Shown here one piece after another: positions 3,842 to 52,525 of a stretch of DNA of 64,000 nucleotides. The translations under genes and the position numbers were made by a program. The stretch's first letter is position 1. Each line of letters starts with the position of its first letter. Source of the stretch: an uncultured Bacteroidaceae bacterium (GTDB lineage: Bacteria; Bacillota; Clostridia; Christensenellales; CAG-917). The stretch spans positions 103,913-167,912 of the forward strand of contig CAZJZV010000001.1 of the NCBI GenBank assembly GCA_964550635.1, read 5' to 3'. The notes beneath the pieces are model-generated. The model made no database searches and was not told the origin of the DNA. It saw nothing but the letters and a program-made list of their open reading frames with translations.

Positions 3842-4793
3842 CTGCCGTGCCCTCCGCCGACAACGCTTCTTCGTTGCCTTCTACGTTATAAAGCATAATT
3901 TTGCCGAAAATTTCTTCTTGTTCCGCCCTGATTTGACCGTATTTCATGAGTTCGAGCACCGCAAGGAAGGTGATGACGATATCCCCTTTGTCGAAGTCGG
4001 GTTCAAACAAAAACTCGAAATCGAACGTGCCGTGATATGCGATGAGTTCCTTGATATGCACCATTTGTTCATGAACGGAAAACCTATCTTTGACGACCTT
4101 TTTGGGAATTGCTTCCTTGATTGCTCTCTCAGAATTCGCGAGCACTCTTGCAAACGCTTCCACGAGTTTTGCAAGTGAAAAGTCGGTCAAACAAACGCGA
4201 TAATCCTTTTCGGTATATACGGGTTCGCGTTCAAAGCGGTTTATTGTTTCCATTTCGCGAAGTTTCTCGGACTCTTCCTTGAAGATTGCGTAGAGTTTCA
4301 ACTTGCGAATGAATTCTTCTCTTTCGACGTCTTCGTCTTCGGGATCTTCGTCCTTTTCTTCAAATAGCGAATTTGTGTGTTTTGATTTGAGATAGACGAG
4401 TTCCGCCGCGAGCGTGATAAACTCCCCTGCGTATTCGTAGTCAAGTTCTTCACGCGGTGTGTTTTTGATGATTTCGACGTATTGATGAGTGACTTCACTG
4501 ACAAATATATCTTCAATTCTGATTTTCGCACGCGAGATAAGTTCAAGCAAAAGATCGAGCGGTCCGTCAAAATCGCTCAAATGATAGACGTACTTGCTCT
4601 GTATGCCAAAAACCTTGTCGGCATCGTCAAGTTCGGCTTCTTCGATAGTAGACGGAGAGTTATTTTCACTTTCTGCATGCTCCGCGTCGGACTGTGAATT
4701 ATCTTCAACAACCGCAGTTGCGACAGACTGTGAGTTTTCTTCGCTCTCCGCCTGCTCTTCGCTATTCAACTGTATCTTTTCTTCATCTATCAT
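3825..4793 (-). CDS. scpA: Segregation and condensation protein A (kleisin), with ~70-aa acidic N-terminal extension
   Basis: Core motif FDGPLDLLLELISRAKIRIEDI. ATGA overlap with lysA. Confidence 0.9.
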   Translation of the reverse strand: MIDEEKIQLNSEEQAESEENSQSVATAVVEDNSQSDAEHAESENNSPSTIEEAELDDADKVFGIQSKYVYHLSDFDGPLDLLLELISRAKIRIEDIFVSEVTHQYVEIIKNTPREELDYEYAGEFITLAAELVYLKSKHTNSLFEEKDEDPEDEDVEREEFIRKLKLYAIFKEESEKLREMETINRFEREPVYTEKDYRVCLTDFSLAKLVEAFARVLANSERAIKEAIPKKVVKDRFSVHEQMVHIKELIAYHGTFDFEFLFEPDFDKGDIVITFLAVLELMKYGQIRAEQEEIFGKIMLYNVEGNEEALSAEGTADGEYN

Positions 4794-6097
4794 ACGAAAT
4801 CCGGAACGACGTTATTTCTGATCACGTCGTCGTAGGTTTGTGGTTTCACGATATAGTCCGCCTTGTCCCCCATAACAAGCACGACGGGAGGCACTGCGTT
4901 GAGATTGTAATTGGACGCCATCGAATAGTTGTATGCGCCCGTCGTAAAGACTGCGACGATATCCCCGACTTCCGCCTTTTGCAAAGGCACGTTTTCGGAG
5001 ATTATGTCACCGCTTTCGCAACACTTACCCGCGATGACGACTTTGTCGTCAAAAGGCGCGCCCGCCTTGTTTGCGACGATTGCGGAATACTCCGAGCCGT
5101 AAAGTGCGTGGCGGGGACTATCAAACATACCGCCGTCGACCGCAACGTACTTTTTGACCCCCGGGAAATCCTTGATTGCACTGACGGTGTAAAGCGTGAT
5201 ACCGCTTTCCCCGACGATACTTCTGCCCGGCTCGACGATAAGGAAAGGTTTTGAAAGCCCTTTCTTTTCGAGTACGGAAGCAAGATTGAGTGCGATATTC
5301 TTGACGATATAGCCATATCTTCTTGCCGTGAAAGCGGGGTCCGACTCAACGTAATGCACACCGTAGCCACCGCCAAGGTCGAGAGTTTCGATTTCGGTGC
5401 CTTCGCCTTTCAATTCAAGCATAAAGTCGGTGACTTTTTCAATGCATTCGTCGTATGCGGAATGGTCGAAAATTTGCGAGCCAACGTGTACGTGCAAGCC
5501 TTTGAATGAAATATTTTTGCGAGAGATTATATCTTTGATATAATAAACTGCGTCTTTCGTTATATCGAATCCGAATTTGGAATTGGGAGCGGACGTTTGC
5601 ACCGCTTCGTACGTATGCGCGCTCACAAGGGGATTTATTCTCACGATGACTTCTTGTTTCACCCCGAGTTCCCCTGCGATTTTGTCGATATTGTCGATTT
5701 CGGGAATGCTATCAACCGCAAAATATCCTATCCCCGCTCTCACCCCTTCTTCGATCTCTTTCGGGGTTTTCGCGTTGCCGTGAGCGATGATATGCTTGGG
5801 ATTCACTCCCGCCTTCAAAAGAAGATACAACTCTCCGCCCGACACGCAGTCAAACCACAAGCCGTGAGAAGATAGCATCTTCGTAGTCGCGATAGACGCA
5901 AACGCTTTGGATGCGTAAGCGACCGCGCCGTCACCATATGCGGACAGTCCTGCGACCATTTCATCCGCTACGGACAACATATATTCTCCGTCCATAACGT
6001 ATAGCGGAGTGCCGAACTTTTTTGCAAGGTCGGTTGCTTTCAATTTTCCGACGAACAAGTCGCCTTTTTCGATATAAAGTGTTTCGCGCAAATTCAT
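4790..6097 (-). CDS. lysA: Diaminopimelate decarboxylase
   Basis: 435 aa with a fold-III PLP decarboxylase pattern (YASKAF, HVHVGSQ, GGGYGV, CESGD). Confidence 0.92.
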   Translation of the reverse strand: MNLRETLYIEKGDLFVGKLKATDLAKKFGTPLYVMDGEYMLSVADEMVAGLSAYGDGAVAYASKAFASIATTKMLSSHGLWFDCVSGGELYLLLKAGVNPKHIIAHGNAKTPKEIEEGVRAGIGYFAVDSIPEIDNIDKIAGELGVKQEVIVRINPLVSAHTYEAVQTSAPNSKFGFDITKDAVYYIKDIISRKNISFKGLHVHVGSQIFDHSAYDECIEKVTDFMLELKGEGTEIETLDLGGGYGVHYVESDPAFTARRYGYIVKNIALNLASVLEKKGLSKPFLIVEPGRSIVGESGITLYTVSAIKDFPGVKKYVAVDGGMFDSPRHALYGSEYSAIVANKAGAPFDDKVVIAGKCCESGDIISENVPLQKAEVGDIVAVFTTGAYNYSMASNYNLNAVPPVVLVMGDKADYIVKPQTYDDVIRNNVVPDFV

Positions 6098-20766: not shown

Positions 20767-22057
20767 CTAAACGGGACAGGGCTTTTTCAAACGCTTTTCC
20801 GCGTTCTTCAAAATTTGCGTACTTATCGAAACTCTTGCTTGCGGGGGAAAACAACAAGTTGTTTACACCGTGAGTTTTCGCCATATTCAACCCCTTTTTG
20901 ACTGCGTCGTCAAGGTCGCAAGCGACTTCGTAGTTTTCGTAGCCGTACTTATCCATACTATCGGTGATTTCCTTTTCGTTTTCACCGATCACGACAACCC
21001 CCGCGATATTCTCGCTCGCGCCGTCAAATATCAAATCGAAATTCTCCCCTTTCTTCGCACCGCCCATAATCACGACACCCTTTCCGTCAAGACTCTCGAC
21101 TGCGGACAGAGTCGCGCCAACGTTGGTCGCTTTGCTATCGTTGAATACGGACACCCCGTCGATGAGTGCGACTCTTTCTCTCCTAAACCGCGGGCGACTA
21201 AAACTCGTCAATGCGGATGCGACGGTATATACGCTCACACCTTTCGACATTGCGACGGCGGTTGCGGCAAGCGCGTTTTCAATTTCCCTGCCCTTCAAGT
21301 CTATCTCGCTAACGTCGATGACGGGCAAACCCTTGTAGCAAATGAAACCGTCCGAGATATACGCTCCGCAAGTCGGATTTTTCACACTGAAGGGTATCTT
21401 TTCCGCATTCATATACGGCACGAGAGAAAGGATGACTTCGTCGTCTGCATTGTAGATTATCTTGTCGCATTCGCTCTGTCTGATGAAGATATTCGACTTT
21501 GCCGAAACGTACTTATCAAAAGTCTTGTGGCGGTCGATATGGTCGGGGGTGATATTCAAAAGCACCGCCACGTCGGGCGCAAATTTGATTGTGCTTTCAA
21601 GTTGGAAACTGGACGCTTCAACGACCACGGTTTCGGATGAATCGTAGTTGTCGCATACGGACGAAAACGCAATTCCCACGTTTCCCGCCACGTGCGAAAA
21701 AGTCCCCGCGGTGCGCAAAATATGATTGATGAGATTGACCGTCGTCGTCTTTCCGTTTGTGCCTGTGACCGCGATGATTTCCGCATCGCAAAATGCAGAT
21801 GCAAGTTCAAGTTCGCCGACTACGGTTTTTCCTTCGAGTTTTGCGTCGAGAATGAAGTCCTTCCCCTGCTCAACCCCGGGACTCAACACGATAATATCCG
21901 CAGATGAGAAAACTCCCACCGACGAAGTCGCGTGCATAACGCACGGATTGTCGTCGTAAATTATCGCGCGACCGCCCTTCGATTTCACAAGGTCGTAAGC
22001 GGAAAGCCCGCTCACCCCACCGCCGTATATGACGACGTTTTTGCCGAGCAAATTCAT
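20759..22057 (-). CDS. murD: UDP-N-acetylmuramoylalanine--D-glutamate ligase
   Basis: Starts MNLLGKNVVIYGGGVSGLSAYDL, with P-loop VTGTNGKTTT. The ATG at 22057 forms an ATGA overlap with mraY. The remaining 182 upstream codons of the ORF overlap mraY out of frame. Confidence 0.9.
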   Translation of the reverse strand: MNLLGKNVVIYGGGVSGLSAYDLVKSKGGRAIIYDDNPCVMHATSSVGVFSSADIIVLSPGVEQGKDFILDAKLEGKTVVGELELASAFCDAEIIAVTGTNGKTTTVNLINHILRTAGTFSHVAGNVGIAFSSVCDNYDSSETVVVEASSFQLESTIKFAPDVAVLLNITPDHIDRHKTFDKYVSAKSNIFIRQSECDKIIYNADDEVILSLVPYMNAEKIPFSVKNPTCGAYISDGFICYKGLPVIDVSEIDLKGREIENALAATAVAMSKGVSVYTVASALTSFSRPRFRRERVALIDGVSVFNDSKATNVGATLSAVESLDGKGVVIMGGAKKGENFDLIFDGASENIAGVVVIGENEKEITDSMDKYGYENYEVACDLDDAVKKGLNMAKTHGVNNLLFSPASKSFDKYANFEERGKAFEKALSRLDD

Positions 22058-29985: not shown

Positions 29986-30699
29986 ATGAAAGTATTTGCA
30001 ATAAGCGATCTTCATCTCTCCACCGTCGTAGAAAAACCTATGAACGTGTTTGGGGACGATTGGAACGACTATTTTGAAAAGATAACCGCGGATTGGCAGG
30101 AAAAAGTCACCGAGAATGACGTAATACTTCTCGGTGGCGATTTGTCTTGGGGAATTTCCATTGACGAGGCAAAACCCGACTACGACTTGATTTCCGCACT
30201 CAACGGCAAAAAAGTGGTCGTAAGAGGAAATCACGACTATTATTGGGACACTCTTTCCAAAATTCAAAAGGCATTCCCCGACTTTTTATTCTTGCAGAAT
30301 AACTGCATAAGAATCGGCAATCTTCTAGTCGTCGGTTCACGCGGTTGGACAATACCTACGGACGACACCACGCAAGAAGACAAGAAGATATACGACAGAG
30401 AGCTTATTCGCCTTGAACTTTCTCTCACCGCAATGCAAAGGGTGCGCAAACCCGACGACTTTGTCGTCGCACTTCTACACTATCCGCCCTTCGATGCAAA
30501 ATACAACGACACGGCAGTCACTACACTTCTTGAAAAATACGAAGTGAATGCAGTCACCTACGGACACCTACACGGCAAAAACGTGCGCGTGACTCCCAAG
30601 GTTGTGAAAAACGGTATTCCCTACTATCTGACGTCCTGCGACCTGATAGGCAACCGCCTTGTCTTCATCGCAGATTTAGGCGACACGGTTTCAGAATAG
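29986..30699 (+). CDS. Metallophosphoesterase (calcineurin-like)
   Basis: Motifs ISDLHL, GGDLSW, GNHDYYW and GHLHG. Confidence 0.8.
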   Translation: MKVFAISDLHLSTVVEKPMNVFGDDWNDYFEKITADWQEKVTENDVILLGGDLSWGISIDEAKPDYDLISALNGKKVVVRGNHDYYWDTLSKIQKAFPDFLFLQNNCIRIGNLLVVGSRGWTIPTDDTTQEDKKIYDRELIRLELSLTAMQRVRKPDDFVVALLHYPPFDAKYNDTAVTTLLEKYEVNAVTYGHLHGKNVRVTPKVVKNGIPYYLTSCDLIGNRLVFIADLGDTVSE

Positions 30700-45216: not shown

Positions 45217-45466
45217 GTGAGTACGCACTCACTTATTCGGGGACGAAACACGAGCCGCAACGGCGGCGAGAACTTCGAGTGCGTATTTGGGACGGAGCAA
45301 AAATACGCACTTTATCCACAATATGCAGACGGCGTAGTGTATCGCACTACGCCGTCTTGCATATATCATGCTTGCGAAGCAAGTATATCATATTGCGATA
45401 GCAATATATCACACGCGACAGAGTCGCGTATATCATTGAAAAAGCGCTCCGCTCGGAGTGCTTTTT
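45217..45466 (+). ncRNA. Candidate structured ncRNA: chain of 6 stem-loops ending in a terminator
   Basis: Hairpins at 45217-45232, 45278-45311 (11 bp), 45323-45362 (17 bp with a bulge), 45368-45386, 45390-45407 and 45413-45429. Terminator at 45440-45466. The wobble positions are G-U on the plus strand and A-C on the minus strand. No promoter was identified. Confidence 0.3.
45440..45466. terminator. Terminator hairpin at the ddl 3' end (AGCGCTCC-gctc-GGAGTGCT + T5)
   Basis: Flanked by an A5 run and a T5 run. It abuts the ddl stop codon (45466-45468). The stem is better on the plus-strand RNA. Confidence 0.6.
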
Positions 45467-46578
45467 CACATACTGCATTTCCCGCCGCCGTGGAAGTTTT
45501 CGAGTACGCCCGTCGAGTAGGTGCGGTGAGTGGGTTTTCCCTTTTTTATTGCGTAGTCGATTATCCGCCGTAGCATTTCGGGATAGGTTATTCCAACTTC
45601 TTCAAACAGATAATACGCAAGCGAACCGGGGATTGTGTTGATTTCGTTGATATACACCTTATTTCTCGTTTTATCCACAAGGTAGTCCATTCTGACCACT
45701 CCGTCCAAATCCAACTCGTCGTAGAGTCTTGCGGTATTCGCCTTGACGACGGAATTGAGTGGACCTATATCCGCGGGCATAATACGACCGCCGCCACTCA
45801 TTTTCCCGCCCGATACGTACTTATCTTCAAAAGTCAGAATATCGTGTACGGATAGCGGTCTTTCTGTTTCGGACACGACGACACCGTCGCTATCCCTAAA
45901 CGCCGCGCAGTTGACTTCGACAAAATCCGTGAGCATTTGTTCAACGACCATTTTATCGTCGAACTCCTTTGCAACGTCGAGAGCGTATATTAGGTCTTCT
46001 CTATTCTCCGCCGTGCTAATACCTATGCTACTCCCCGCCCTTGACGGCTTGACGATGAGCGGATAGCCGAGAGTATTTTCAAGTCGGGAGAAGGTTTCAT
46101 CCGTCCTTTCTTCGTACTCCCTTTTCGTTACGACCGAATGCGGAATGACGTTCAAGAGCATATCATCGAATATCTTTTTGCTCACTCCCTTATCCATACA
46201 GATAGCGGACGGCAGTACTCCTGCGGACGTATACGGTATTCCGTAAAATTCAAGCAAAGCTTGAAGTGTGCCGTTTTCCCCTTCCCCGCCGTGACAACAG
46301 ATAAGCGCGACGTCGGGTGCATAAACCTTTTTGAGTTTACCCCTTTTCACCGTGTAGAATCCACCGCTATATAGCAAAGTCTTCACGTGCTTATGCGCTT
46401 CAAACGGTGTGAAATCGGACAGAGTTTTCATACCGCCCAAATAGAAATCACCGTCGTACATGAATATCGGTTCGACTTCATAACCGTCGAGTTGCTTATA
46501 AGTCTGAATTGCGGTAATGACGGATATATCGCTCTCGAGCGACCGCCCGCCGAAAATCAACGCTACTTTTCTTTTCAT
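45466..46578 (-). CDS. ddl: D-alanine--D-alanine ligase
   Basis: ATP-grasp fold. Motifs are ALIFGGRSLESDIS, HGGEGENGTLQ and YINEINTIPGS. Confidence 0.93.
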   Translation of the reverse strand: MKRKVALIFGGRSLESDISVITAIQTYKQLDGYEVEPIFMYDGDFYLGGMKTLSDFTPFEAHKHVKTLLYSGGFYTVKRGKLKKVYAPDVALICCHGGEGENGTLQALLEFYGIPYTSAGVLPSAICMDKGVSKKIFDDMLLNVIPHSVVTKREYEERTDETFSRLENTLGYPLIVKPSRAGSSIGISTAENREDLIYALDVAKEFDDKMVVEQMLTDFVEVNCAAFRDSDGVVVSETERPLSVHDILTFEDKYVSGGKMSGGGRIMPADIGPLNSVVKANTARLYDELDLDGVVRMDYLVDKTRNKVYINEINTIPGSLAYYLFEEVGITYPEMLRRIIDYAIKKGKPTHRTYSTGVLENFHGGGKCSM

Positions 46579-46585
46579 ACCCCTC

Positions 46586-48178
46586 CTATTCGTCGTACAC
46601 GTCGGGCAAATCGTTCAAAAGCAGTAGATTATCGCCCATACGTAGCAAAATACCAAAATCGTTTTTCGCCTCGTCCAAGGTGTCGTAGTGGTAGATTTTC
46701 CCGCTGAAATCCGCATTACGCAGTCCCCTTGCAACGAAGTCCGCGCGCATACCGCCGATCAAGACCACGACGTCCGCAACTGATGCGATACACTCTCCGA
46801 GATATTCGTTGACTTCGGTTTCTTTTTTGCCGAGTTCGACGAGTCCCGGTGTTACGACCACCTTTCTACCCGCGAATTTAGCAAGCACGTCGAGTGCGCA
46901 AATTGCTCCGTCGGGGTTTGAATTGAAGGTGTCGTCAATTATTCTTATGCCGTTACCGCGGATAAGTTGCAGGCGGTGCGGAACGGGTTTGAGAGTGGCA
47001 ATTCTCTCGACGATTTCTGCGGGCGACACTCCGAGATAGTAGGCGATAGCGGCGGAAAGTACGACGTTTTCAACGTTATGTTTGCCGAGAAGATAGGTTT
47101 TTGTCGGATAGACGTCATCCCCGAAGTGCAGGTTGAAAACAGAGCCGTCGTTTGCAACCGCAAGTTCGCTTGCATACACTCCGTCATCTTCGTCAAAGCC
47201 TGCAAAATACGGCAATTTCGTTTGCTTTTTGGCGGATAACAATCTTTCTTTCACACCGTCTGAAGCAAATCCTACTCCGCTATCGTCGAGCATGTTTATC
47301 ACTCTCGTCTTCTCCCTGACCAAGTTTTCCATACTGCCGAAAGTTTCGAGATGTTGCTCGTTTATCCCTGTCAAAACGCCGACGGTAGGATTGACGATTT
47401 TCATAAGTTTCTTTATATCCTCCACTCTACGCGCGCCCATTTCGGCAATCAAGACGTCGTGAGAGCCGTCGAGCATAGCGACCGTTTTCGCAATACCCAT
47501 AGGCGTGTTGTAACTCTCTGGCGACGACAAAACCTTATACCGTCCGCCAAGGATATGCGCAAGATAGTTTTTGACCGACGTTTTGCCGTAACTCCCTGTT
47601 ATACCTATTTTGACAAGGTGCGGATATTCGGCGAGAATGCGGCGAGTTTTTCTCTCATAGCGCAAATTATTTAGCCTTTCAAAACAGTTCACTACCGCCA
47701 TAGTTAGCGAAAAAGTAATCGGATAGAATATCGGAAACGCAAATATCGACGAATATCTGAAATATGCGTCCTCAACCACCGCGTTCAAGTGAAATAGAGT
47801 GAGCATAATGAGAGTGGAATTGACCGCAACGAGCGCGCTCAATGCCCTGACCGCGCGTTTCGTGTAGCGCATAGGTTTCTTCTTTTCGGGCATTTCTTCG
47901 GCAAAATACAACGTGATTTCAGCTATGAAAAAGAACATCGCGTCGAGAAATCCCCAGAATATTCTCGACTGCAAAAAACTCAATCCGATATATATCCCCG
48001 CGAATATCCCTACGCATAGCAAATCCATAAGGTAGGCGGTGCGCAGTCGCTTGCTTTTGAAAACGGTTGAAATTCGATAATTGTCCTGTTGCGCCACGTA
48101 TAAGTAAGGGCGGGATATGAATAGCGACGACAACAAGGACAGTATGATGAAAAACCAATTACCCCTTGCTAATACCAA
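46586..48178 (-). CDS. Mur ligase (MurF-like) with ~190-aa polytopic membrane N-terminal domain
   Basis: About 5 hydrophobic segments are followed by the P-loop IGITGSYGKTS, YNTPMGIA, AEMGA, and the central and C-terminal Mur ligase domains. Immediately upstream of ddl. Confidence 0.75.
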   Translation of the reverse strand: MVLARGNWFFIILSLLSSLFISRPYLYVAQQDNYRISTVFKSKRLRTAYLMDLLCVGIFAGIYIGLSFLQSRIFWGFLDAMFFFIAEITLYFAEEMPEKKKPMRYTKRAVRALSALVAVNSTLIMLTLFHLNAVVEDAYFRYSSIFAFPIFYPITFSLTMAVVNCFERLNNLRYERKTRRILAEYPHLVKIGITGSYGKTSVKNYLAHILGGRYKVLSSPESYNTPMGIAKTVAMLDGSHDVLIAEMGARRVEDIKKLMKIVNPTVGVLTGINEQHLETFGSMENLVREKTRVINMLDDSGVGFASDGVKERLLSAKKQTKLPYFAGFDEDDGVYASELAVANDGSVFNLHFGDDVYPTKTYLLGKHNVENVVLSAAIAYYLGVSPAEIVERIATLKPVPHRLQLIRGNGIRIIDDTFNSNPDGAICALDVLAKFAGRKVVVTPGLVELGKKETEVNEYLGECIASVADVVVLIGGMRADFVARGLRNADFSGKIYHYDTLDEAKNDFGILLRMGDNLLLLNDLPDVYDE

Positions 48179-48852
48179 TTTTTACCGCCTAAATTTTTAT
48201 TGCCGTCCTTAGTTTCAAACAAAAATGCGCGAAGTATGGATATGAAAACGTCCGCATCGTCCACGTAGGCGAAGTGTCCGCCGTTAAGCCAAAAAATCTC
48301 GCTACCGCGTATGCCTTTTTTGAGTTTTTTCGCCATATACGGCGGGGTAACTTTATCCTTTCCGCCCCAGAAAATAGCGGTAGGGCAATGGATTTCGGAT
48401 AGTAGTCCGCTTTGGTCGTAGGACACTACGTTTTTGAAAGTTTCCTTCATCACGGGAGAAAGCACCCGATAATCTTTCGAGCCTTTGAGTCCCCTAAATC
48501 CCAAACGGACGAGTGCTTTATGAAGATAAATCTTGAGATAATACGACGGTTTTCTGCGCGGTTTCAACCCGGCGGAGTCAACAAGCACGAGAGACCGCAC
48601 AAGGTCGGGGCGACTGCTTGCAATCTCAATCGCAACCCTACCGCCGAAAGAATGCCCGACGATACACGTCCTGCTCTCTCCCAACTCTTCGAGCATAGTT
48701 ACGATTTCATTTGCGTAGTCTTTCACGCTATACGGTTTATCAGGCTCCGCGCTCTCCCCGAAACCGCTGAAATCCACGACTATGCTTTTATATCCGCCGA
48801 GCCGTTTTGCGACAAACAAAAAGGCGGAAGCGCTACCGCCCCACCCGTGCAA
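48169..48852 (-). CDS. Alpha/beta hydrolase
   Basis: Contains HGWGGS and the nucleophile elbow GHSFGG. The listed start is a TTG. The in-frame upstream sequence INKFIVGSGESVLFL runs to 48894, directly after an AAGGAGG SD, so the true start may be non-canonical. Confidence 0.75.
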   Translation of the reverse strand: MHGWGGSASAFLFVAKRLGGYKSIVVDFSGFGESAEPDKPYSVKDYANEIVTMLEELGESRTCIVGHSFGGRVAIEIASSRPDLVRSLVLVDSAGLKPRRKPSYYLKIYLHKALVRLGFRGLKGSKDYRVLSPVMKETFKNVVSYDQSGLLSEIHCPTAIFWGGKDKVTPPYMAKKLKKGIRGSEIFWLNGGHFAYVDDADVFISILRAFLFETKDGNKNLGGKNWY

Positions 48853-48903
48853 GAATAATACCGATTCGCCACTGCCGACGATGAATTTGTTTATGCGTCC
48901 TCC

Positions 48904-49335
48904 TTAGACGTCCAGCCACATAATGAGCGCGTCGTCACGATTGTTATAATACCTCTTACGTACGCCCTCCACTCGGAAACCGAATCCCAAGTACATATTT
49001 TTTGCGACTTCGTTGGTAGATTTGACCTCCAAAGTCAAGTGTTTCACGCCGATTTCTCTCGCCTTCGAGATGAGCATCGACATAAGGAATTTGCCAAAAC
49101 CGCGTCCTCTTTCGGACTGTTTGACCGCTATATTAGTTATATGCCCTTCGTCAAGGACTTTGTGAAAACCGCCGTAGCAAAGCACTTCATCCCCCCTGAC
49201 TCCGACGAGATAATACGCATCCCCCGCATTCAATTCGGGGATAAACATATTTTCCGTCCAAGGTTGGTCGAAAGCTTCTCTTTCAATCTCCGCCATTTGA
49301 CGAAGATGCTCGTAGCGTAGCGGTTCGAATCTCAT
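48904..49335 (-). CDS. rimI: Ribosomal-protein-alanine N-acetyltransferase
   Basis: GNAT motif ITNIAVKQSERGRGFGKFLM. Its context after tsaB is as expected. Confidence 0.85.
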   Translation of the reverse strand: MRFEPLRYEHLRQMAEIEREAFDQPWTENMFIPELNAGDAYYLVGVRGDEVLCYGGFHKVLDEGHITNIAVKQSERGRGFGKFLMSMLISKAREIGVKHLTLEVKSTNEVAKNMYLGFGFRVEGVRKRYYNNRDDALIMWLDV

Positions 49336-49901
49336 TTCAAATTTCTCTCCGCTTGCGATTTTCTCATATATACAGGCTCGAATACGTCCACGAATTCTCC
49401 GTTTTTCACCTTCGATTTCAAGACGTTTTCAAGCGCAACGTGTGCGGGACAAGCAAGCGTATAGACGGTGTCGCTCGGGATACTGTCCTTATCCGTCTCT
49501 TCCACAAATCTCGTTTCAAGGATTTTGCCGTTTTCGCAAGTCGCAAGATAGGTATTTCCGTGACCTGCGTCCACCCCTGCCGTTATCCGCGCTCTACTAT
49601 ATGCGAGAAGTTCAAAATAGTTTACCGCAACTCTTTTCGCGCCGTTTGAAAAGGATATGGCAGTCATAGCGGACGCGCCTATGCGAATACCCGTGAACGA
49701 GCCCGGCCCCACGACTACGCAAGCGACGTCAAGATCGTCGGGGGTGAGTCCCGCACTGTCCATAACCTTTTTGATTTCGGGGATGAGCAAGGACGAATGT
49801 CCGCTTTTACCCACTTCAAATTCGGTGAAATAGGATTTTTCGTTGTCTACGACAACGATTGTGAGAGTTGTATTTGTGGTGTCAATTGCCAGTGCTTTCA
49901 T
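49332..49901 (-). CDS. tsaB: tRNA t6A biosynthesis protein TsaB
   Basis: Starts [11 protein letters not shown], with the motif VVGPGSFTGIRIG. Confidence 0.85.
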   Translation of the reverse strand: MKALAIDTTNTTLTIVVVDNEKSYFTEFEVGKSGHSSLLIPEIKKVMDSAGLTPDDLDVACVVVGPGSFTGIRIGASAMTAISFSNGAKRVAVNYFELLAYSRARITAGVDAGHGNTYLATCENGKILETRFVEETDKDSIPSDTVYTLACPAHVALENVLKSKVKNGEFVDVFEPVYMRKSQAERNLK

Positions 49902-51019
49902 TCTTCAATCTCGAATATTCTGCTATTTTCTCCGTCAACGGCAATTTTTATCTTGATGATTTTGCCGTTCAGGCTTTCAAATTTATTCCATTCTATGACG
50001 GTCACTCCGTCGTCCGAAATCGCCTCTTCCACGCCGAGTTCGACAAGGTCGTCTTCATGCTCCACCCTGTACATATCGAGATGATTGAGTTTCAATCTAC
50101 CGCTTTCGTACACGTTGAGTATGGTGAATGTGGGGCTTGTGACTTCTTCTTCAACACCGAGTGCTTTTGCAAGTCCTTTCGTGAAAGTGGTCTTGCCTGC
50201 GCCAAGGTCGCCGTCGAGCAATATGACCTCTCCGCCAACGAGAGTATCGGCAAGTTTTTCGGCAAGAGCGTAGGTTTCTTCCACGCCGTCTACCCTATAT
50301 TCTCCCGACAAATTCACGACTTCTTCGTCAACGTGCTTTTTCAAACTCGTACCGTCCCAATGCAGTATTTTCGTCAGGCGTTTGTACAACACGAACGTCA
50401 ACGCACCTACTATTATACATCTTAAAAGATTAAAAGGCAACACGCCTGCGAATAAATAATAAACGTAAAACGTGTCCATAGTGACGTCTTTATAGAGCGG
50501 TTGGAGCATTCCGACGATTGCGCCGAAGTCACCTTTGAAATACAACTCGACGAAAAACGGTATGGATATGAATCTGTTGACGATGATAGACGCGATAGTG
50601 AGAAGCACACCGCCTACGCAAATGCCTATGAAAGCGTGCTTTTTGTCTTTTTTGCGGTGATAAATAAGTGATGCGGGCAGGACGAACAAAATTCCGAGAA
50701 TAATATCCGTTGCCTCCCCGACGTATGCGGTGCTTGTCATAGGAAATTTGAAAAGGCATTTCAAGACGATAACTACGCAACCGCTGATAGGCCCCATAGA
50801 AAAGCCCGCGAGAAGTGCCGGCAATTCACTGATTTGAATTTCAAGGAAATTCGGGAATATGAACGGAAGATTGAACTTTCCGAAAGCGTACAAGATGAAT
50901 GATATTGCGGTCAAAATTGCGATTTTCGCAATATATGCCGTAGTAAAGCGCGGATTTTTGAACTGTGAAAACAGTTTTTTGATTCTTTCTTTCGCACCGA
51001 TTGCGTTTTCGTTGCCCAT
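49898..51019 (-). CDS. In-frame fusion: RibU-like ECF-transporter S component (N) + tRNA t6A ATPase TsaE (C)
   Basis: The N-terminal ~225 aa are polytopic ([35 protein letters not shown]). The C-terminal ~140 aa carry [13 protein letters not shown] and [19 protein letters not shown] before the ATG at 51019. An FMN riboswitch lies upstream. Confidence 0.8.
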
Positions 51020-51054
51020 ATTTCTCCTTCGGCGCACTTCGTCAATTTTCGGGA

Positions 51055-51212
51055 TACAAAAAATGCGCCTTCAAGGGCGCAAACTCGTCATTCGACGGTC
51101 GCTTCTATCATCCGGACTATACCGTCGGTCAGGGAATTTCACCCTATCGGCACGCTTTGCGTGTTCGCGGACTGTCACCGCCGGTGAGGAATCTAACCTC
51201 GCCCCGAAGCAT
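51055..51212 (-). promoter_or_regulatory. FMN riboswitch (RFN element) with terminator expression platform
   Basis: The minus strand reads CUUCGGGGCGAGGUUAGAUUCCUCACCGGCGGUGACAGUCCGCGAAC...GAUAGGGUGAAAUUCCCUGACCGACGGUAUAGUCCGGAUGAUAGAAGC, which matches the conserved RFN cores. It is followed by UGCGCC-cuugaa-GGCGCA and a U7 run. Confidence 0.85.
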
Positions 51213-51216
51213 TTAT

Positions 51217-51245
51217 ATTATATCTATCCCTATCCACATTGTCAA
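51217..51245 (-). promoter_or_regulatory. Consensus sigma-A promoter for the riboswitch (TTGACA-N17-TATAAT)
   Basis: On the minus strand, TTGACA is at 51245-51240 and TATAAT at 51222-51217, just upstream of the aptamer 5' end. Confidence 0.6.
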
Positions 51246-51262: not shown

Positions 51263-51838
51263 TTAGTTATCGGACAGGATTTCGATTGCTTTTTCCTTGA
51301 ACACCGCGTTGTTTTCGAGAAGTTCATCAAAGGTTACGGGTGCAAATCCGTTCACGTCCACCCCCGCATTGAGTGCGTTAGGCAAGTTGAAAATTGGCAG
51401 ATATTCCGGGCGGATATTTCCGTGCGTATGACCGTGAATAAGATAAGAGAGTTTTGCACTTCCGACCTTCCGACTTCCCTTCCATTCGAGCATCGGATAA
51501 TGGCAAAGAGTCATCGGACGAGAGCAAACGGACGTATCGAGCAAAGGGGTTATTTCCACGAAATAATCCCTAGGATTATCGAGTTTATCAAGCCAATTCG
51601 AGTCGTGATTCCCGCGCACGAGAATTTTTTTGCCTTTTAGGCGGTCGAGATAGGGTTTCGGATCAATTCCCTTCCAAATCAAATCCCCGACGATATAGAC
51701 GGTATCGTTGCCTTTGACCTTTTTGTTCCAATTCTCAATGAGAATATCATCCATTTCATCGACGGACGAAAACGGACGGTTGCACGTTTTGATGATGTTG
51801 TTATGCCCCAAATGCAAATCGGCTGTGAAATATACCAT
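51263..51838 (-). CDS. Metallophosphoesterase
   Basis: Motifs FTADLHLGH, VGDLIW, GNHD and HGHTHG. Confidence 0.8.
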   Translation of the reverse strand: MVYFTADLHLGHNNIIKTCNRPFSSVDEMDDILIENWNKKVKGNDTVYIVGDLIWKGIDPKPYLDRLKGKKILVRGNHDSNWLDKLDNPRDYFVEITPLLDTSVCSRPMTLCHYPMLEWKGSRKVGSAKLSYLIHGHTHGNIRPEYLPIFNLPNALNAGVDVNGFAPVTFDELLENNAVFKEKAIEILSDN

Positions 51839-51896: not shown

Positions 51897-52190
51897 ATGT
51901 TAGTTTATGAAACCACGGTAGCAGACGTCGCATTATCCTTTGAAAAAGTTATTGCGTCGAGATATTATCAAGGCGACGGCGTAGTTATAGTCGCGGTCCT
52001 GACTTCTCAGATTTACAGCGCAAGCGAGCGGACTTCACTACGTGAAGAAATCCGCGCGGAAATCGAAAAACGGTTTTCAACGAAAACTCTCGTCACCTAC
52101 GATTTAGGCGCTTATCTATCCATGCACGACGGTATGAGCGAAGACGAAATCTCCGCTCTATACGCAAAAGTCGGCTATTCTCCCTTGTAA
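51897..52190 (+). CDS. Hypothetical small protein (97 aa), weakly supported
   Basis: This is the 3' part of ORF 51708..52190 from the ATG at 51897. It has plausible composition and fills an otherwise 336-nt gap. It has no SD and I recognise no family. Confidence 0.3.
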   Translation: MLVYETTVADVALSFEKVIASRYYQGDGVVIVAVLTSQIYSASERTSLREEIRAEIEKRFSTKTLVTYDLGAYLSMHDGMSEDEISALYAKVGYSPL

Positions 52191-52525
52191 AACTCTACGT
52201 TGTTTCCGTCGCTCCAGAGTTTTTCAAGGCAGTAAAACATACGAGTATCATCGTTGAAAACGTGCACGATGACTCCGCCGTAGTCGAGCACAACCCACTT
52301 TCCTTCGGTGAGTCCGTCGACGCGCAGGCAGTTTACGCCGTGATTTTCCATGGTTTCTTGCAGATATTCCGCAAGTGCCTTGACTTGACGATTGCTCTTC
52401 CCGGTGCAAATGACGAAGTAGTCCGCAACGACGGTCAGATGCTCGACTTTCAAGACGGTGATATCGACCGCTCTTCGGTCGTCAAGTTCTTTACAAATCA
52501 ATTTTTTCAGTTCTAAACTTTCCAT
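52175..52525 (-). CDS. rsfS: Ribosome silencing factor RsfS
   Basis: 116 aa. Contains DITVLKVEHLTVVADYFVICTG and WVVLDYGGVIVHVF. Confidence 0.92.
   Translation of the reverse strand: MESLELKKLICKELDDRRAVDITVLKVEHLTVVADYFVICTGKSNRQVKALAEYLQETMENHGVNCLRVDGLTEGKWVVLDYGGVIVHVFNDDTRMFYCLEKLWSDGNNVEFYKGE

Follow-up and report, generated by a model that had tools for sequence, protein, structure and literature searches.

A RibU-like transporter gene fused to tsaE behind an FMN riboswitch in uncultured gut Clostridia, with a candidate promoter inside the transporter codons

The locus described here lies in a 64,000-nucleotide stretch of DNA, referred to below as the window (positions 103,913 to 167,912 of contig CAZJZV010000001.1, GenBank assembly GCA_964550635.1). 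On its minus strand, a flavin mononucleotide (FMN) riboswitch precedes a single open reading frame (ORF) that joins a RibU-like S component, the substrate-binding subunit of an energy-coupling factor (ECF) transporter, to TsaE, a protein with a predicted ATPase role in the synthesis of the tRNA modification threonylcarbamoyladenosine (t6A). A tightly packed string of genes follows directly behind: tsaB, rimI, an alpha/beta hydrolase gene, a murF-like ligase gene and ddl. The named relatives of this locus are uncultured Clostridia, such as metagenome-assembled genomes (MAGs) labelled Christensenella, Ca. Stercoripulliclostridium and Ca. Scatosoma, and the locus itself comes from an uncultured gut Clostridia lineage near Christensenellaceae. 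The leader and the fused gene comprise the following features.

51217-51245, minus strand: P1, a consensus sigma-70 promoter (TTGACA-17-TATAAT, 12/12 match) that drives the riboswitch leader.
51096-51215, minus strand: FMN riboswitch aptamer (RFN element, RF00050).
51058-51081, minus strand: expression platform, an intrinsic terminator UGCGCC-CUUGAA-GGCGCA followed by U6 (stem 51081-51064, T6 51063-51058).
51024-51029, minus strand: Shine-Dalgarno (SD) sequence AAGGAG of the fused ORF (duplex dG -9.3 with the anti-SD; ATG at 51019).
49898-51019, minus strand: fused ORF of 373 amino acids in one continuous frame, consisting of a RibU-like ECF S component, a linker and TsaE.
50384-50935, minus strand: RibU-like domain, residues 29-212, Pfam PF12822 (ECF_trnsprt), with six transmembrane helices predicted from hydropathy.
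49919-50284, minus strand: TsaE domain, residues 246-367, PF02367 and TIGR00150.

The initial annotation, made by reading the sequence, had placed a consensus promoter at 51245-51217 and an FMN aptamer at about 51212-51098, and both are present. The promoter matches at every hexamer position, and the aptamer was recovered with the RF00050 covariance model at 98.1 bits (gathering score 66.2; E=1.8e-21), with all of model positions 1-138 of 138 covered. The terminator that had been placed at 51081-51055 also exists as a hairpin, with a 6-bp stem and a free energy of -12.9 kcal/mol, and it is present in the minimum-free-energy structure of the leader; the U7 run attributed to it is in fact U6. 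When the 3′ arm of the terminator is blocked during folding, the aptamer segment AGGGUGAAAUUC pairs with the terminator left arm, GAGUUUGCGCCCU, in an alternative structure of -51.5 versus -58.1 kcal/mol. This pairing is a plausible candidate antiterminator, with which the modelled leader would be able to switch between two structures. Terminator-type leaders occur in 16 relatives, and all leaders examined have a platform of this type. Most relatives likewise show, upstream of the aptamer, a TTGACA -35 box and then a -10-like box.

The frame had also been described as continuous, with a riboflavin-type S component at its N-terminus and a complete TsaE at its C-terminus, and each part of this description holds. 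The ORF runs from 51019 to 49898 without interruption. The N-terminal domain matches PF12822 at 87.9 bits (cutoff 30.7), and its only sequence matches in the PDB are RibU chains (3P5N, 6e-19; 5KC0 and 5KBW, 9e-14). In Foldseek comparisons, it is closest to RibU, with template modelling (TM) scores of 0.87 for TmRibU (5KBW) and 0.84 for SaRibU (3P5N) at E~1e-8, against TM<=0.72 and E>=6e-3 for ThiT, BioY, FolT and PanT. An NCBIfam search gave no RibU-specific match, only weak matches to the MPN527 and FolT families below their cutoffs, so that it is the PDB and Foldseek similarities, together with the riboswitch, that speak for riboflavin specificity. By these comparisons, the N-terminal domain is RibU-like and its substrate is predicted to be riboflavin.

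The C-terminal domain scores 126.7 bits against PF02367 (cutoff 26.6) and 113.1 bits against TIGR00150 (cutoff 60.1), and it resembles B. subtilis YdiB (5NP9), TmTsaE from T. maritima (6S84) and 6N9A at TM 0.72-0.79. Among 21 aligned fused proteins, the Walker A motif GxxGxGKT and the SPTF, HxDxYR and EW motifs are invariant, comprising residues G270, G273, G275, K276, T277, S295, P296, T297, H313, D315, Y317, E343 and W344, and the linker between the domains varies in both length and sequence. Judged by its motifs, this TsaE domain is complete, with all catalytic motifs kept, and an ATPase role in t6A synthesis is predicted for it. An AlphaFold2 model of the fused protein (predicted local distance difference test [pLDDT] 87; predicted TM-score [pTM] 0.60) shows two confident domains separated by a disordered linker at residues 225-234 (pLDDT<50). 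Taken jointly, the riboswitch, the fusion and the identities of the two domains can be regarded as practically certain.

To place the window among its relatives, we used a comparison set of 34 fused and 24 split loci from genomes and metagenomes, designated by L numbers below, in which the fused loci comprise 31 distinct DNA sequences. An uninterrupted frame spans both domains in the window and 33 related contigs (52-99% amino-acid identity), and comparison of orthologous loci shows no frameshift or stop at the junction in any of these 34. Each of the 34 fused loci in the window's clade has the aptamer upstream, and so does L015. ORF tracing showed ribU and tsaE to be separate, adjacent genes in L007-L010, L012-L014, L016, L018, L046, L072 and L078, of which L046 is the cultured Caldanaerobacter subterraneus. 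A tblastn table had suggested 16 fused genomes, and the same tracing left only L004, L005, L006 and L015 as fused. Some MAGs with a Clostridia-type locus (L004, L006 and L008) carry the labels 'uncultured Bacteroides sp.', 'Bacteroidaceae bacterium' or 'Parasutterella excrementihominis'; these labels probably reflect mislabelled bins or contaminant contigs.

More widely, over 120 clusters at 90% identity hold both PF12822 and TsaE, and full-length fusions reach down to ~34% identity in a search of 50%-identity representatives. A rough neighbour-joining tree puts fused genes beside split sisters at four or more separate points, suggesting that the fusion is recurrent and has arisen in several lineages. 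The view that a transporter-TsaE fusion is unusual thus stands overall, and fails within this lineage, where the architecture is common. The sources examined give the fused proteins no functional name, only an uninformative MGnify tag; our literature search found nothing relevant that links TsaE with an FMN riboswitch or with RibU, or that reports it fused to an ECF transporter; and a 2015 survey of riboflavin transporters does not mention the fusion.

Almost every locus, fused or split, has the riboswitch together with ribU. The exceptions are split loci L008, L010 and L018 and fused loci L167 and L169. In the flank of L008, positions 230-317 of the minus strand give a sub-threshold match to the thiamine pyrophosphate (TPP) riboswitch (48.5 bits, gathering score 54.3, E=1.6e-6). 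The genes in L167 (3001-4035) and L169 (1500-2774) are independently fused and begin 8-9 nt past the upstream gene, which is rsfS in L167 and a PAP2 phosphatase gene in L169. The fusion therefore exists in a context without a riboswitch too.

The split loci show how the two genes were probably regulated before they were joined. A terminator stands after ribU in L012, L014 and L046. Upstream of tsaE, seven split loci carry TTGCAA-17-TATAAT at only 6-8 nt before the ATG, without an SD (L009, 5590-5618; L012, 5810-5845; L013, 5830-5865; L014, 4150-4184; L016, 5550-5585; L072, 1560-1596; L007, 4515-4552). This spacing is apparently the geometry of a leaderless mRNA for tsaE, an essential gene. The split sister of the window's clade is L007, and there the -10 box shares bases with the stop codon of ribU; L046 has a promoter-like box and then an SD before tsaE. 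In L017, a Christensenellaceae MAG, ribU and its riboswitch are inverted (4118-4841, minus strand) and diverge from a standalone tsaE (5004-5375, plus strand). The promoters of tsaE, and the terminators of ribU, suggest that the riboswitch ancestrally controlled ribU only and that tsaE was self-promoted. Fusion would then be the derived state, because a fission would need a new stop, terminator, promoter and start to appear together, and the split layout, which most of the related Clostridia have, appears to be ancestral. In the window's clade, the split-type tsaE promoter is gone, and a different promoter candidate lies inside ribU, followed by a candidate internal translation start.

50412-50440, minus strand: P2, a candidate internal promoter TTGCCT-17-TATAAT (10/12 match) in codons L194-P195...C201-I202-I203 of RibU transmembrane helix 6.
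50352-50359, minus strand: SD-like sequence TGGGACGG (codons W221-D222-G223), ending 7 nt upstream of codon 226.
50342-50344, minus strand: codon 226 (TTG), a candidate internal start that would give a free TsaE of 148 amino acids.

The evidence for P2 comes from synonymous sites. The 31 distinct fused genes were codon-aligned and reduced to 18 representatives with 63-95% DNA identity. Both P2 hexamers are identical in 18/18, save for a change of TATAAT to TACAAT in three; these variants come from an Ile to Thr replacement, and a good -10 box is kept. Only 5.1% of third codon positions are invariant gene-wide, and those of V193, L194, P195, R200, C201 and I202 all are. Among the 157 columns with an invariant, degenerate amino acid, a single codon is used in just nine, and five of these nine are V193, L194, P195, R200 and C201 (hypergeometric probability ~2e-7, before correction for the choice of position). 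The F, N and L codons neighbouring the hexamers vary freely. Split relatives with the same LPFNLLRC motif (L008, L010, L011, L014 and L007) encode it with other codons, and no promoter is formed. A cluster of rare codons was ruled out as the cause of the invariance, for the codons used are neither rare nor dominant (TTG 0.37, CCT 0.22, AGA 0.51, TGT 0.48, ATA 0.41).

As read from these alignments, the P2 hexamers are under purifying selection at the DNA level, beyond what coding needs. The pattern matches that of a sigma-70 promoter that arose after the fusion, with the basal fused loci L006 and L108 lacking it, and P2 is likely to be functional as such a promoter. Just upstream of its -35 box, the codons TAT TAT TTG (Y187-Y188-L189, 50452-50463, minus strand) are also nearly invariant synonymously. 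In relatives, they form the -10 box of a second, weaker promoter-like sequence, GTGACN-18-TATTAT, which matches at 9/12 positions there and at 8/12 in the window. For this block, with which the stretch at about 50470-50490 is grouped, the role of an UP-like element or of a tandem promoter is conceivable.

Codon 226 lies ~68 nt past the P2 -10 box, within the linker that is disordered in the structural model. It is ATG in 15/18 representatives and start-capable in 17/18, with TTG in the window and L005 and ATT in L001. The preceding TGGGA(C/T/G)GG is invariant among the representatives. Its predicted duplex with the anti-SD has a dG of -6.4 to -10.7 in relatives and of -7.7 in the window; the latter is within the top 1.4% of background windows (mean -2.0) and similar in strength to the rimI and murF-like SDs. 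On this basis, we lean slightly towards the use of codon 226 as a TsaE start. An internal GTG at V235, which had been proposed for this role in the initial annotation, fares poorly: its dG is -1.5, it has no SD, the insert that contains it occurs in only 2/18 representatives, and the codon is GTG in the window alone. The idea that M226 is the exact ancestral tsaE initiator is not supported, as the first Met of standalone TsaE aligns ~5 codons downstream of codon 226.

We propose that the window's clade carries two nested transcription units, a model that is a computational prediction from sequence, folding energies and E-values. In this model, ribU would have lost its stop codon and the intergenic region, and would now read in frame into tsaE, the first gene of a housekeeping operon. 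P1 would transcribe the riboswitch, and with FMN bound, the terminator at 51081-51058 would halt transcription. Without FMN, a read-through mRNA would be translated as a RibU-linker-TsaE polypeptide. The C-termini of ECF S components are cytoplasmic, as known from RibU structures, and for this reason the TsaE domain of the fusion should lie on the cytoplasmic side of the membrane. P2 would start a second mRNA at about 50405, inside the RibU helix-6 codons, on which the SD-like motif and codon 226 would yield free TsaE of 148 residues. The same mRNA would carry tsaB, rimI, the hydrolase gene, the murF-like gene and ddl independently of FMN.

The model thus supposes three things: activity of P2, initiation at codon 226, and a fusion polypeptide that is produced and either works or at least does no harm. 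A regulated RibU-TsaE polypeptide alongside constitutive free TsaE and operon expression is the arrangement we consider rather probable. The initial annotation had suggested that riboswitch termination might throttle the t6A and D-Ala-D-Ala genes. For the window's clade, this is probably wrong, given an internal promoter under synonymous-site constraint.

Several points weigh against nested units. P2 matches the consensus at only 10/12 positions, and single-sequence promoter matches in the region are at the level of chance (13, versus 9.1±2.9 in shuffles). The SD-like motif coincides with a tail that is conserved in the protein, KILHW(D/E), and that also occurs in split L007, so that conservation of the motif is partly due to the protein. 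Codon 226 itself is TTG rather than ATG in the window, and ATT in L001. Finally, no internal promoter was found in fused loci L006, L015, L108 and L164-L169, in L006 and L108 even at relaxed thresholds, so P2 is specific to its clade. Among these, the basal L006 and L108 and the independently fused L015, L164, L166 and L168 all have the riboswitch. It thus seems that a fusion governed by the riboswitch only can persist, and that P2 is no strict requirement.

These same loci lend weight to the alternative that survives best, namely a single unit transcribed from P1 only, in which FMN-dependent termination would lower RibU, TsaE, TsaB, RimI, the MurF-like ligase and Ddl together. Cells could survive such an arrangement if the terminator were leaky, or if the organism were a riboflavin auxotroph that never fully shut the switch. 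The short terminator stem makes leakiness plausible, and the genes past tsaE are packed with overlaps or tiny gaps. On the other hand, a single unit offers no evident cause for synonymous invariance that coincides exactly with a -35/-10 pair spaced by 17 nt and is specific to the fused clade, and it sits poorly with a tsaE that was ancestrally self-promoted beside a ribU that often has its own terminator. Control by P1 only may well fit the other fused lineages without P2; for the window's clade, we consider it possible but unlikely.

A second alternative holds that the fusion is itself adaptive: tethering TsaE to RibU might couple flavin uptake to t6A or translation capacity, or the TsaE ATPase might modulate the S component. 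In the window's clade, this would make a dual-output gene that supplies FMN-regulated, membrane-bound TsaE together with constitutive soluble TsaE. The scattering of fused genes among split sisters in the tree, the survival of ribU-tsaE adjacency through the ribU inversion in L017, and the open frame in all 31 distinct fused sequences would fit such a role. Adjacency alone, however, makes fusion by a small deletion easy. The linker is variable and predicted to be disordered, no covarying interface was seen (pTM 0.60), and we know of no biochemical link between flavins and t6A, which also counts against this alternative. In the window's clade, moreover, the RibU tail ends just ~6 codons short of codon 226, so that an open frame says little about selection. 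Adaptive coupling is therefore best viewed as improbable.

Codons 193-203 might instead be conserved for a role other than that of a promoter, such as a rare-codon pause, an RNA structure or an RNase processing site. Their conservation is real, and the nearby Y187-Y188-L189 codons are nearly invariant too. Yet the codons are not rare, the invariant blocks match TTGACA and TATAAT at a spacing of exactly 17 nt, and the sole tolerated change falls at the least critical position of the -10 box, all of which leave this explanation quite improbable. That the fusion is an artefact, either of a frameshift in sequencing or assembly or of faulty gene calling, has a negligible chance: many 'full-length' tblastn matches did prove to be two adjacent genes, but the same frame recurs in 34 independent contigs, which stem from different samples and were built with different assemblers, and the idea is already refuted.

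Under the nested-unit model, the genes that would benefit from P2 are those downstream of the fused ORF.

49332-49901, minus strand: tsaB (TIGR03725, 102 bits), with an ATG that overlaps the tsaE stop by 4 nt (ATGA).
48904-49335, minus strand: rimI (TIGR01575, 121 bits), overlapping tsaB by 4 nt.
48169-48894, minus strand: alpha/beta hydrolase gene, with its SD AGGAGG on the rimI stop and a putative ATA start at 48894.
46586-48178, minus strand: MurF-like ligase gene, encoding a hydrophobic N-terminal region of ~185 amino acids instead of the canonical N-domain.
45466-46578, minus strand: ddl (D-Ala-D-Ala ligase), after a 7-nt gap.

The hydrolase and murF-like genes share a 10-nt overlap, and the string ribU, tsaE, tsaB, rimI, alpha/beta hydrolase, murF-like, ddl, often followed by icd, is conserved down to ~30% identity. 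Tight packing from tsaB to ddl had been claimed at the outset, and every overlap, the SD position and the 7-nt gap are as described. The accompanying argument that there is no obvious room for promoters carries no weight alone, given the chance-level promoter matches noted above.

Two genes of the string have features of their own. Between 48906 and 48852 on the minus strand, the hydrolase SD is followed by no ATG, GTG or TTG until the TTG at 48852, and a start there would remove the strand that precedes the HGWGG loop. An in-frame ATA at 48894-48892, 4 nt past the SD, is common to the window and L001, and L099 and L105 have TTG at about this position. The hydrolase may thus start at a non-canonical ATA at 48894. 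The murF-like protein (530 amino acids) matches MurF only from residue ~187 on, across the middle and C domains. Its N-terminus of ~185 residues replaces the domain that binds UDP-N-acetylmuramic acid (UDP-MurNAc) and contains about four transmembrane-like segments (1-28, 47-71, 110-135 and 144-163). This region is kept in relatives, with tblastn alignments that begin at query residues 1-20 in L001-L005, L008, L010, L013 and L017. Elsewhere in the window, 21059-21775 gives another match to Mur ligases, a weak one with 24% identity.

On the other side of the riboswitch promoter, between it and an rsfS-like ORF (52175-52525), is a metallophosphoesterase gene (51263-51838, minus strand). It has no counterpart there in L001 and L002, which carry a small ORF on the opposite strand in its place, and a weak match to a paralogue is found at 29992-30246 of the window.

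Each part of the locus is of a familiar type, be it the FMN riboswitch before ribU, the tsaE-tsaB-rimI operon or the sigma-70 promoter. As in the FMN-riboswitch ribU (ypaA) genes of the Bacillota, an RF00050 aptamer stands before a RibU-type S component, with the same off-switch logic. Unlike in those genes, the transporter ORF continues into TsaE and is immediately followed by a housekeeping operon. The S component is of the group II style, with no ECF module adjacent; nor was an ABC-ATPase-like ORF (the ECF ATPase), a second tsaE or a second ribU found within the 64-kb window. In B. subtilis, the tsaE-tsaB-rimI(-tsaD) operon is ydiB-ydiC-ydiD-ydiE. The window shares with it the order tsaE, tsaB, rimI, the overlapping stops and starts, and a YdiB-like TsaE fold. 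It differs in that TsaE is fused to a membrane protein and no tsaD follows; the alpha/beta hydrolase gene, the MurF-like ligase gene and ddl stand there instead, in a string that is conserved across the clade.

The split Clostridia loci (L007, L009, L012-L014, L016, L046 and L072) are similar to the window in their neighbours, in their leader with riboswitch and terminator, and in their downstream string. Unlike in the window, ribU in these loci ends with a stop, often with a terminator, and tsaE has its own promoter. Short isoforms from in-frame internal starts are familiar from CheA-L/CheA-S and IF2 alpha/beta. Here too, a long product and a short C-terminal one are predicted to come from a single frame, the latter by way of an internal ribosome binding site and start. 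Unlike in those cases, a separate internal promoter would be the main source of the short product, and regulation is predicted to differ between the two, FMN-dependent for the long one and constitutive for the short one. What would be new is the combination: a recurrent RibU-TsaE fusion, its apparent rescue by a promoter in helix 6, and two nested outputs under different regulation.

The RibU-TsaE architecture is abundant in human-gut Clostridia, and its split relatives point to apparently leaderless tsaE promoters. The weight of the rescue is limited in that several other fused lineages seem to manage without an internal promoter. If the nested-unit model is true, it would also be a warning to annotators and those who predict regulons, as genes that abut a riboswitch on its downstream side are not necessarily under its control. 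For these bacteria themselves, it would mean that a regulatory conflict produced by gene fusion has been resolved, with an essential operon that came to lie behind a metabolite off-switch apparently rescued by an internal promoter. That promoter would have arisen within the codons of a transmembrane helix, where it is visible only as a constraint on synonymous sites.

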